IMG/VR virus record: IMGVR_UViG_2541047436_000009
Length of the DNA stretch: 4,968 bases
Direction: 5' to 3' (one strand)
Origin: a virus
Taxonomy: Duplodnaviria; Heunggongvirae; Uroviricota; Caudoviricetes
A program made the position numbers and the translations under genes. A model generated the notes under the pieces. It saw only the letters and a program-made list of their open reading frames with translations, searched no databases and was not told where the DNA came from. Each line of letters starts with the position of its first letter. Within the stretch, counting starts at the first letter, position 1. Positions 1,299-1,357 of the stretch are shown piece by piece.

Positions 1299-1357
1299 AA
1301 AAAAGGGCGGCAGAGCAGTTACGGAGTAAAACTGATACCGCCAAATGTCACCAGAAT
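1299..1357 (-). ncRNA. dicF: DicF small RNA homolog (ftsZ-targeting sRNA of the Qin dicB operon) with its intrinsic terminator
   Basis: Minus-strand sequence AUUCUGGUGACAUUUGGCGGUAUCAGUUUUACUCCGUAACUGCUCUGCCGCCCUUUUUU matches the K-12 DicF sequence as I recall it, with about 3 substitutions. The 3' end is a GC stem (GGCGG...CCGCC with an inner CAGUU/AACUG stem) followed by a U6 run at 1304..1299. It sits about 180 nt upstream of the dicB-like start. Confidence 0.8.

Follow-up and report, generated by a model that had tools for sequence, protein, structure and literature searches.

Which repressor controls a copy of the small RNA (sRNA) DicF that is carried by a prophage other than Qin? In Escherichia coli K-12, dicF, dicB, and ydfD follow one another in Qin, downstream of dicA, an order that we confirmed in the K-12 genome. 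In the 4,968-nt stretch of phage DNA analyzed here (the window), the original prediction, made from the sequence alone, placed the same trio in the PL operon of a racR-ydaS-ydaT immunity region, so that an sRNA targeting ftsZ and a MinC-dependent division inhibitor would be wired to a different repressor; it also implied that such an arrangement is unusual.

The sRNA itself leaves little room for doubt. The Rfam DicF covariance model (RF00039) aligned end to end (model positions 1-52) to minus-strand positions 1356 to 1305 with a score of 76.9 bits (GA, 48; E = 2.4e-16). Together with its terminator hairpin and U6 tail, the latter seen as six A's on the plus strand at 1299-1304, the gene occupies 1299-1357 on the minus strand, exactly as it had been delimited. 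The hairpin, GGCGGUA...UGCCGCC followed by the U run, has a predicted energy of -15.5 kcal/mol in the fold of a 66-nt stretch. Alignment with K-12 dicF (NC_000913.3, 1649382-1649434) revealed exactly three substitutions, the number anticipated, which in K-12 numbering are U to A at position 1, G to A at position 12, and G to A at position 38; the U tail is one U longer than that of K-12. In the fold of DicF itself, the inner stem is topped by a U-A pair in place of U·G, owing to G38A. The other hallmarks of the family, namely, a 3' Rho-independent hairpin with a U run, complementarity to the ftsZ ribosome-binding site, and a location upstream of dicB and downstream of a conserved leader in the early operon of a prophage, are likewise present. 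An E-value search of the whole window against Rfam returned only DicF and a subthreshold match to STnc100, and the leader 5' of DicF belongs to no curated family. The segment is a genuine copy of the known prophage sRNA DicF.

Both of the protein genes expected after DicF were recovered on the same strand. The 62-aa product of the gene at 931-1119 is a homolog of the division inhibitor DicB over its full length (Pfam PF05358, 131.8 bits with a cutoff of 27; NCBIfam NF049927, 123.7 bits with a cutoff of 100) and is 55% identical to K-12 DicB; its dependence on MinC is assumed here from family membership. The 63-aa DUF1482 protein encoded at 743-934 scored 69.2 bits with Pfam PF07358 (cutoff, 25) and is 63% identical to K-12 YdfD, while a search against the NCBIfam profiles gave no match. 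The dicB stop codon and the ydfD start codon share an ATGA at minus-strand positions 934 to 931, and the two genes are thus coupled as had been proposed. Beyond ydfD, the first 216 codons of a YdfE-type exonuclease gene (1-649, minus strand; phrog_2082, E = 2.3e-163) run off the window; in related loci, the neighbor at this position is an 823-aa exonuclease.

Upstream of DicF, the leftward operon opens with a ydfA/ydaF-like gene of the DUF1391 family (2597-2752, minus strand; Pfam PF07151, 100.5 bits), followed by a ydfB/ydaG-like 42-aa open reading frame (ORF) (2467-2595, minus strand; phrog_2061), and this stretch shares 96.6% nucleotide identity with ydfA-ydfB of Qin. The next ORF (2066-2455, minus strand; phrog_1363, E = 1e-50) encodes a 129-aa protein of unknown function that has an identical copy in O157:H7 CP-933P-type prophages. 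A 61-aa ORF on the plus strand (1694-1879; phrog_10133, E = 7e-48) is convergent with the operon and occupies a moron slot that is taken by sieB in K-12 Rac; gene calls for the O157:H7 CP-933P-type prophage include the same gene. Every ORF of the operon is intact. We note that the 61-aa ORF has a good Shine-Dalgarno sequence and encodes CxxC...CPEH motifs and that the 129-aa ORF is followed by a 50-aa ORF (region 1917-2455, minus strand) with an ATGA stop/start overlap at 2066-2069; the 50-aa product matched no family in profile searches. We rejected the notion that the 129-aa and 50-aa ORFs together are a frameshifted version of a 212-aa gene of strain E200086, as homology is limited to the first ~50 codons and the 129-aa protein is itself an intact member of a PHROG family.

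The immunity region next to this operon is of the Rac type, with racR, ydaS, and ydaT all present. The 158-aa repressor encoded by racR (3068-3544, minus strand) was recognized by the NCBIfam equivalog NF049929 (246.8 bits; cutoff, 200) and is 92% identical to K-12 RacR. On the plus strand, ydaS (3669-3992), the Cro analogue, matched Pfam YdaS_toxin with 103.9 bits and P22_Cro with 35.3 bits, and ydaT (3976-4401), the CII analogue, matched YdaT_toxin with 41.1 bits. A Pfam profile search found no peptidase S24 domain in RacR, and RacR has been described as SOS independent (PMC10448788); induction would therefore be expected to proceed through loss or titration of RacR and not through RecA-mediated cleavage.

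A promoter scan of the window gave as its best match a PL-like σ70 promoter, TTGACA-17-TATAGT (11 of 12 consensus positions), at minus-strand positions 2959 to 2931, which lies downstream of racR and is directed towards DicF. The other of the two top σ70 matches, the PR-like promoter PydaST (TTGACA-18-TAATAT; 3612-3641, plus strand), is identical in its hexamers and their spacing to the mapped K-12 PydaST (PMC11879457). DNase I footprints in K-12 defined the RacR half-site ATTAGGC and operators of the form (T/A)TAGGC-n3-GCCTA(T/A) (PMC9638921). Scanning for WTAGGC-n3-GCCTAW with up to two mismatches allowed, we found five matches in the window, where 0.54 would be expected. Two of these (OL; 2934-2948 and 2959-2973) overlap the -35 element and the spacer of the PL-like promoter, and three (OR; 3573-3587, 3598-3612, and 3624-3638) are at the divergent racR/ydaS promoters. 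The ATTAGGC half-site is also present five times (0.55 expected), in every case beside the leftward or the ydaS promoter, and the 26-nt blocks at 2953-2978 and 3593-3618 are inverted copies of each other (88%). The window thus has the divergent ydaS-ydaT genes with operators over the promoters that mark a RacR-type region, and in K-12 Rac the spacer between racR and ydaG has a conserved counterpart of the leftward promoter-operator block.

Between the PL-like promoter and DicF (2930-1357, minus strand), we predicted neither an intrinsic terminator nor a promoter matching more than 9 of 12 consensus positions. In K-12, a racR knockdown derepressed the leftward genes ydaG, kilR, ydaE, racC, and recET (bioRxiv 10.64898/2026.09.06.749655). 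Taken together, the promoter, its operators, and a path to DicF with no predicted terminator support, at the sequence level, a PL-type operon that contains dicF-dicB-ydfD and would answer to a Rac-type repressor. This much of the proposed rewiring stood. Published RacR footprints are confined to the racR-ydaS spacer, that is, to the right-hand operators, with none for the left operator (PMC9638921), and for this locus we infer RacR occupancy of the left operator, processing and expression of the transcript, and the division phenotype.

We consider it very likely that the window represents a lambdoid prophage with immunity of the Rac type that holds a functional-looking dicF in its early-left, PL-type operon, that this operon is silenced by RacR and derepressed upon RacR loss, that DicF is then processed and acts on ftsZ, and that the combination was born of recombination inside the ydfA-like gene. 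During lysogeny, RacR dimers on the pair of operators overlapping the leftward promoter would keep the operon silent. Once RacR is titrated or lost, the transcript would run through the ydfA-like and ydfB-like genes, the 129-aa ORF, the untranslated leader, DicF, the structured spacer, dicB, ydfD, and the exonuclease gene, in this order. RNase III and RNase E would excise DicF from the long transcript, as they do for K-12 Qin, with the DicF hairpin and U6 tail providing the 3' end. DicF would then block FtsZ synthesis by pairing of its loop region (nt 25 to 36) with the ftsZ Shine-Dalgarno region, while read-through transcripts would yield DicB, which would impose the MinC-dependent division block, and YdfD.

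Pairing of this DicF with ftsZ was modeled, since the three substitutions could bear on it. When the K-12 ftsZ leader, which may not be that of the host, was used as the target, the predicted duplex contained the same pairs as that of K-12 DicF, at -34.2 kcal/mol compared to -33.8 kcal/mol. The core of the duplex, in which DicF nt 25 to 36 pair with ftsZ positions -1 to -12, is unchanged, and position 38 is unpaired in it. Because the base pairs predicted are the same as in K-12, the substitutions are not expected to affect ftsZ targeting. G12A falls in the 5' region by which K-12 DicF targets xylR (PMC5069750). As for the amount of DicF made, ~560 nt of untranslated RNA and the convergent 61-aa gene intervene between the last leftward ORF and DicF, and Rho-dependent termination or transcriptional interference could therefore limit the transcript that reaches it.

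How did a DicF operon come to lie next to racR? The window is a mosaic: over 1-2918 it shares 99.1% identity with a CP-933P-type prophage of O157:H7, and over 2607-4968 it shares 99.5% identity with an O157:H7 prophage of the racR type. The crossover was placed using mismatch maps against loci L008 and L002/L014/L015. The CP-933P-type locus has only three differences in 1-2711, and the racR-type O157 prophage has none in 2688-3581; therefore, a single crossover lies in 2688-2711, within the DUF1391 (ydfA-like) gene, where the two parents are identical over only 24 bp. On either side of it, each arm is ~99.9% identical to its parent (CP-933P type on the left, racR type on the right). Homology to the CP-933P type starts directly after the -10 box of the PL-like promoter, and, as judged from these alignments, the module exchanged would be precisely the promoter, the operators, and the repressor, with RacR in place of PaaR2. 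Both parents reside in one O157:H7 chromosome (CP051816.1), in the same orientation and ~306 kb apart. As part of the explanation that we hold to be very likely, the combination would have arisen by homologous recombination within the ydfA-like gene between a CP-933P-type operon, under PaaR2, and a racR-type immunity region, both of them already seen in genomes of O157:H7. The junction could stem from a deletion, a conversion patch, or an incoming phage.

The same pattern would be produced if the junction were an assembly chimera of two prophages, paralogous copies within a single O157-like genome, joined through their shared ydfA region, with the real DicF copy standing behind PaaR2 as it does in CP-933P. 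An exact single-crossover mosaic of two prophages that coreside in O157:H7 genomes, such as CP051816.1, is what this scenario predicts. A search with the whole window found nothing near-identical over its full length among 5,426 complete E. coli genomes and 50,697 phage records; a query spanning the junction (2350-3050) had no match at ≥99% identity in the same complete genomes, and the only other instance that we found is in a 2.6-kb draft contig (L025). However, the 24 bp over which the parents are identical at the crossover fall short of the k-mers that common assemblers use in their final rounds. The draft contig is independent and carries the same kind of hybrid with its crossover displaced to 2639-2683, and racR is linked to other dicF-dicB alleles in at least 231 finished genomes. 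We therefore regard an assembly artifact as possible but unlikely; since racR-dicF linkage is common in finished genomes, the biology is in any event independent of the junction in this window. Recombination within the ydfA-like gene remains our preferred account of the locus.

The RNA on either side of DicF bears on how it would be made. The conserved, untranslated leader upstream (1358-1635, minus strand) is strongly structured (fold z-score, -3.7); it is ~89 to 91% identical overall to the leaders of Qin and other cassettes and nearly identical to K-12 over the ~270 nt adjoining DicF. It corresponds to the precursor region cut by RNases III and E in K-12, where DicF is released from a polycistronic transcript by RNase III, which gives a 190-nt species, and by RNase E, which gives the 53-nt species (PMC10448788); a 72-nt form of K-12 DicF results from RNase III cleavage downstream (PMC5069750). 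We considered the leader as a put- or nut-like antiterminator and set this idea aside, as the K-12 data explain it as a substrate for RNase III/E processing (PMC10448788). The 179-nt spacer between DicF and dicB, which includes the dicB 5' untranslated region (1120-1298, minus strand), folds with a minimum free energy of -74.1 kcal/mol (z-score, -5.8), giving a closed structure whose terminal helix has ~28 bp. This helix is kept in all seven loci compared, including the kilS-kilR spacer of K-12 Rac, and is probably an RNase III substrate. The STnc100 match noted above falls within the spacer (RF02076; 1142-1291, minus strand), at 33.6 bits with a GA of 47; the K-12 dicF-dicB spacer gives a similar, also subthreshold, score of 34.4 bits.

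It is conceivable that DicF is made independently of RacR, either from its own promoter in the leader or by read-through of other transcripts. KilS, which holds the same position in K-12 Rac, has been suggested, from global transcription start site data, to be transcribed from a promoter of its own (PMC8175672), and DicF in the window is ~1.6 kb from the PL-like promoter, past a convergent gene and a long untranslated stretch. In contrast, the promoter scan of the minus strand found nothing above 9 of 12 positions anywhere along this path and no promoter in the conserved leader; in K-12, whose leader is nearly identical, no internal promoter came to light by primer extension or Northern blotting, the 5' ends being products of RNase III and RNase E (PMC10448788). 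We judge RacR-independent synthesis to be improbable and favor transcription from the RacR-controlled promoter. Still less credible is the notion that a cryptic prophage has left us a dead remnant, a DicF-like sequence that is silent at all times or has lost its action on ftsZ. In favor of this notion, defective prophages of this kind are numerous, tight repression of the operon is to be expected, and DicB and YdfD have diverged from the K-12 proteins to the extent given above. Against it, the ORFs of the operon and the anti-ftsZ core are preserved, DicF with its leader and spacer is more conserved across loci (~83 to 95% nucleotide identity) than the flanking dicB and ydfD (57 to 81%), and the DicF-dicB-ydfD cassette is also found in inducible phages that have been sequenced, Tritos among them.

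Comparison with named systems shows which parts of the locus are shared with each. The DicF gene resembles that of K-12 Qin in RNA family, length, hairpin, anti-ftsZ core, and its leader of ~270 nt, and the order leader-DicF-spacer-dicB-ydfD-ydfE is that of Qin, with homologs of ydfA and ydfB opening the operon in both. Unlike in Qin, ydfC is replaced by the 129-aa ORF and the convergent 61-aa ORF, and the repressor is RacR with ATTAGGC-type operators instead of DicA/DicC; dicA and dicC flank the operon promoter in Qin-type loci, whereas racR holds the repressor position here. Homology of the window to Qin is confined to 1-1635 and 2469-2790. The O157:H7 CP-933P/Sp12-type prophages have an identical DicF allele, dicB, ydfD, and 129-aa and 61-aa ORFs, but their operon follows paaR2-paaA2-parE2 and has its own promoter, PL933P, and operators (PMC8630535). 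The racR-type prophages of O157:H7 strain 493/89, E200086, and CEA106S share the order int-xis-exo-ydfD-dicB-DicF...DUF1391-racR-ydaS-ydaT with the window. Their immunity regions are 97 to 99.5% identical to it in 493/89 and CEA106S and ~92% identical in E200086; their cassettes, in contrast, are other alleles (86 to 90% identical over 1-1635), and the variable genes that separate ydfA from DicF differ.

K-12 Rac (racR-ydaG-ydaF-sieB-kilS-kilR) offers the closest precedent for the wiring. Apart from the similarity of the repressor, the PL promoter, the operator layout, ydaS/ydaT, and the YdaT-box are the same, and here too an sRNA and a structured spacer precede a small division inhibitor: kilR, an FtsZ inhibitor gene, lies with KilS downstream of racR-ydaG-ydaF. 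KilS (L004, 5411-5466, minus strand) scored 39.1 bits on the Rfam DicF model, below its GA of 48, and, unlike DicF, lacks the ACUCCG anti-Shine-Dalgarno core; the published description of KilS makes no mention of DicF (PMC8175672). When window positions 1120-1357 were compared with this locus, the kilS-kilR spacer (L004, 5231-5410) aligned with the DicF-dicB spacer and is homologous to it. KilR and DicB, in contrast, gave no alignment at E ≤ 100. K-12 Rac thus natively has a DicF-like sRNA and a division inhibitor under RacR, which removes most of the surprise from the locus studied here.

Nor is the linkage rare. A spliced query (1-1635 plus 2607-4400), for which at least 80% had to be covered in one place so that both the cassette and the racR region were needed, detected the dicF-dicB cassette linked to racR-ydaS-ydaT in at least 231 of 5,426 complete E. 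coli genomes. Examples were annotated, and in two of them DicF was confirmed with Rfam. The same census also found dicF cassettes beside other repressors, namely, LexA-type CI, PaaR2/ParE2, and DicA-like regulators, and in the isolated phage Tritos, DicF-dicB-ydfD is behind another CI. The 59-nt DicF allele is matched at 99% identity or more in 325 complete E. coli genomes, of which many are O157:H7. That dicBF is found in several kinds of prophage context, with CP-933O, -M, and -P among them, has been documented (PMC5069750), and enterohemorrhagic E. coli (EHEC) has four dicF copies that are reported to be expressed (PMC7873438 and PMC10448788). As hundreds of sequenced E. coli genomes carry the racR-dicF linkage, the locus, although genuine, is commonplace: the RNA has been described before, its setting is both familiar and frequent, and the unusualness implied at the outset did not hold.

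The locus therefore matters little as a discovery, since DicF, its cassette, and several of its prophage backgrounds are already documented. Its specific interest is in the swap of an immunity module between two O157-type prophages, with the crossover mapped to within 24 bp, which would take a toxic cassette of sRNA and protein genes out of the control of PaaR2 and place it under that of RacR. Since cell division, metabolism, and the virulence regulators of EHEC are all affected by DicF copies, the identity of the repressor that governs each copy is relevant to the reading of DicF expression in pathogens. There is also a practical side: RefSeq annotation leaves DicF unmarked in O157-type genomes, among the matches listed. 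No annotated feature underlies any of these DicF-allele matches (for example, L028, 4501-4559, O157 type). The Tritos phage record and K-12 do annotate DicF.

More tentatively, it is possible, if doubtful, that two broader ideas hold together: that the sRNA (DicF or KilS) and the ~170-nt spacer with its 28-bp helix form a portable processing and expression module, placed before unrelated division inhibitors (DicB and KilR), and that recombination inside the conserved ydfA-like gene between coresident O157-type prophages moves this module from PaaR2 to RacR in present-day strains. Were the module to move in this way, the signal that triggers DicF/DicB filamentation and DicF-dependent virulence regulation in EHEC would change.

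Several minor features of the immunity region and its right flank were recorded. An exact 13-mer, GGGTTGGTATGGG, is present twice, at 2915-2927, the start of the PL transcript, and at 3304-3316, within racR, where it covers codons of a PIPTPS linker; a repeat of this type is estimated to arise by chance ~0.006 times per 900 bp, and the copy at the transcript start is C rich on the RNA strand and has a rut-like look. An exact copy of the published YdaT-box, ATGATTCATGAAAATCAA, lies at 3969-3986 on the plus strand, over the ydaT start codon (PMC11879457), which, by analogy, would imply a CII-like, PRE-type circuit as in K-12 Rac. The window ends in the 5' part of a replication initiator gene (4470-4968, plus strand; phrog_3729, E = 3e-94), inside of which GTCACG occurs nine times, compared to 1.8 expected, at a spacing of ~10 bp and in two clusters (4598-4655 and 4879-4925, plus strand); these repeats look like origin iterons.
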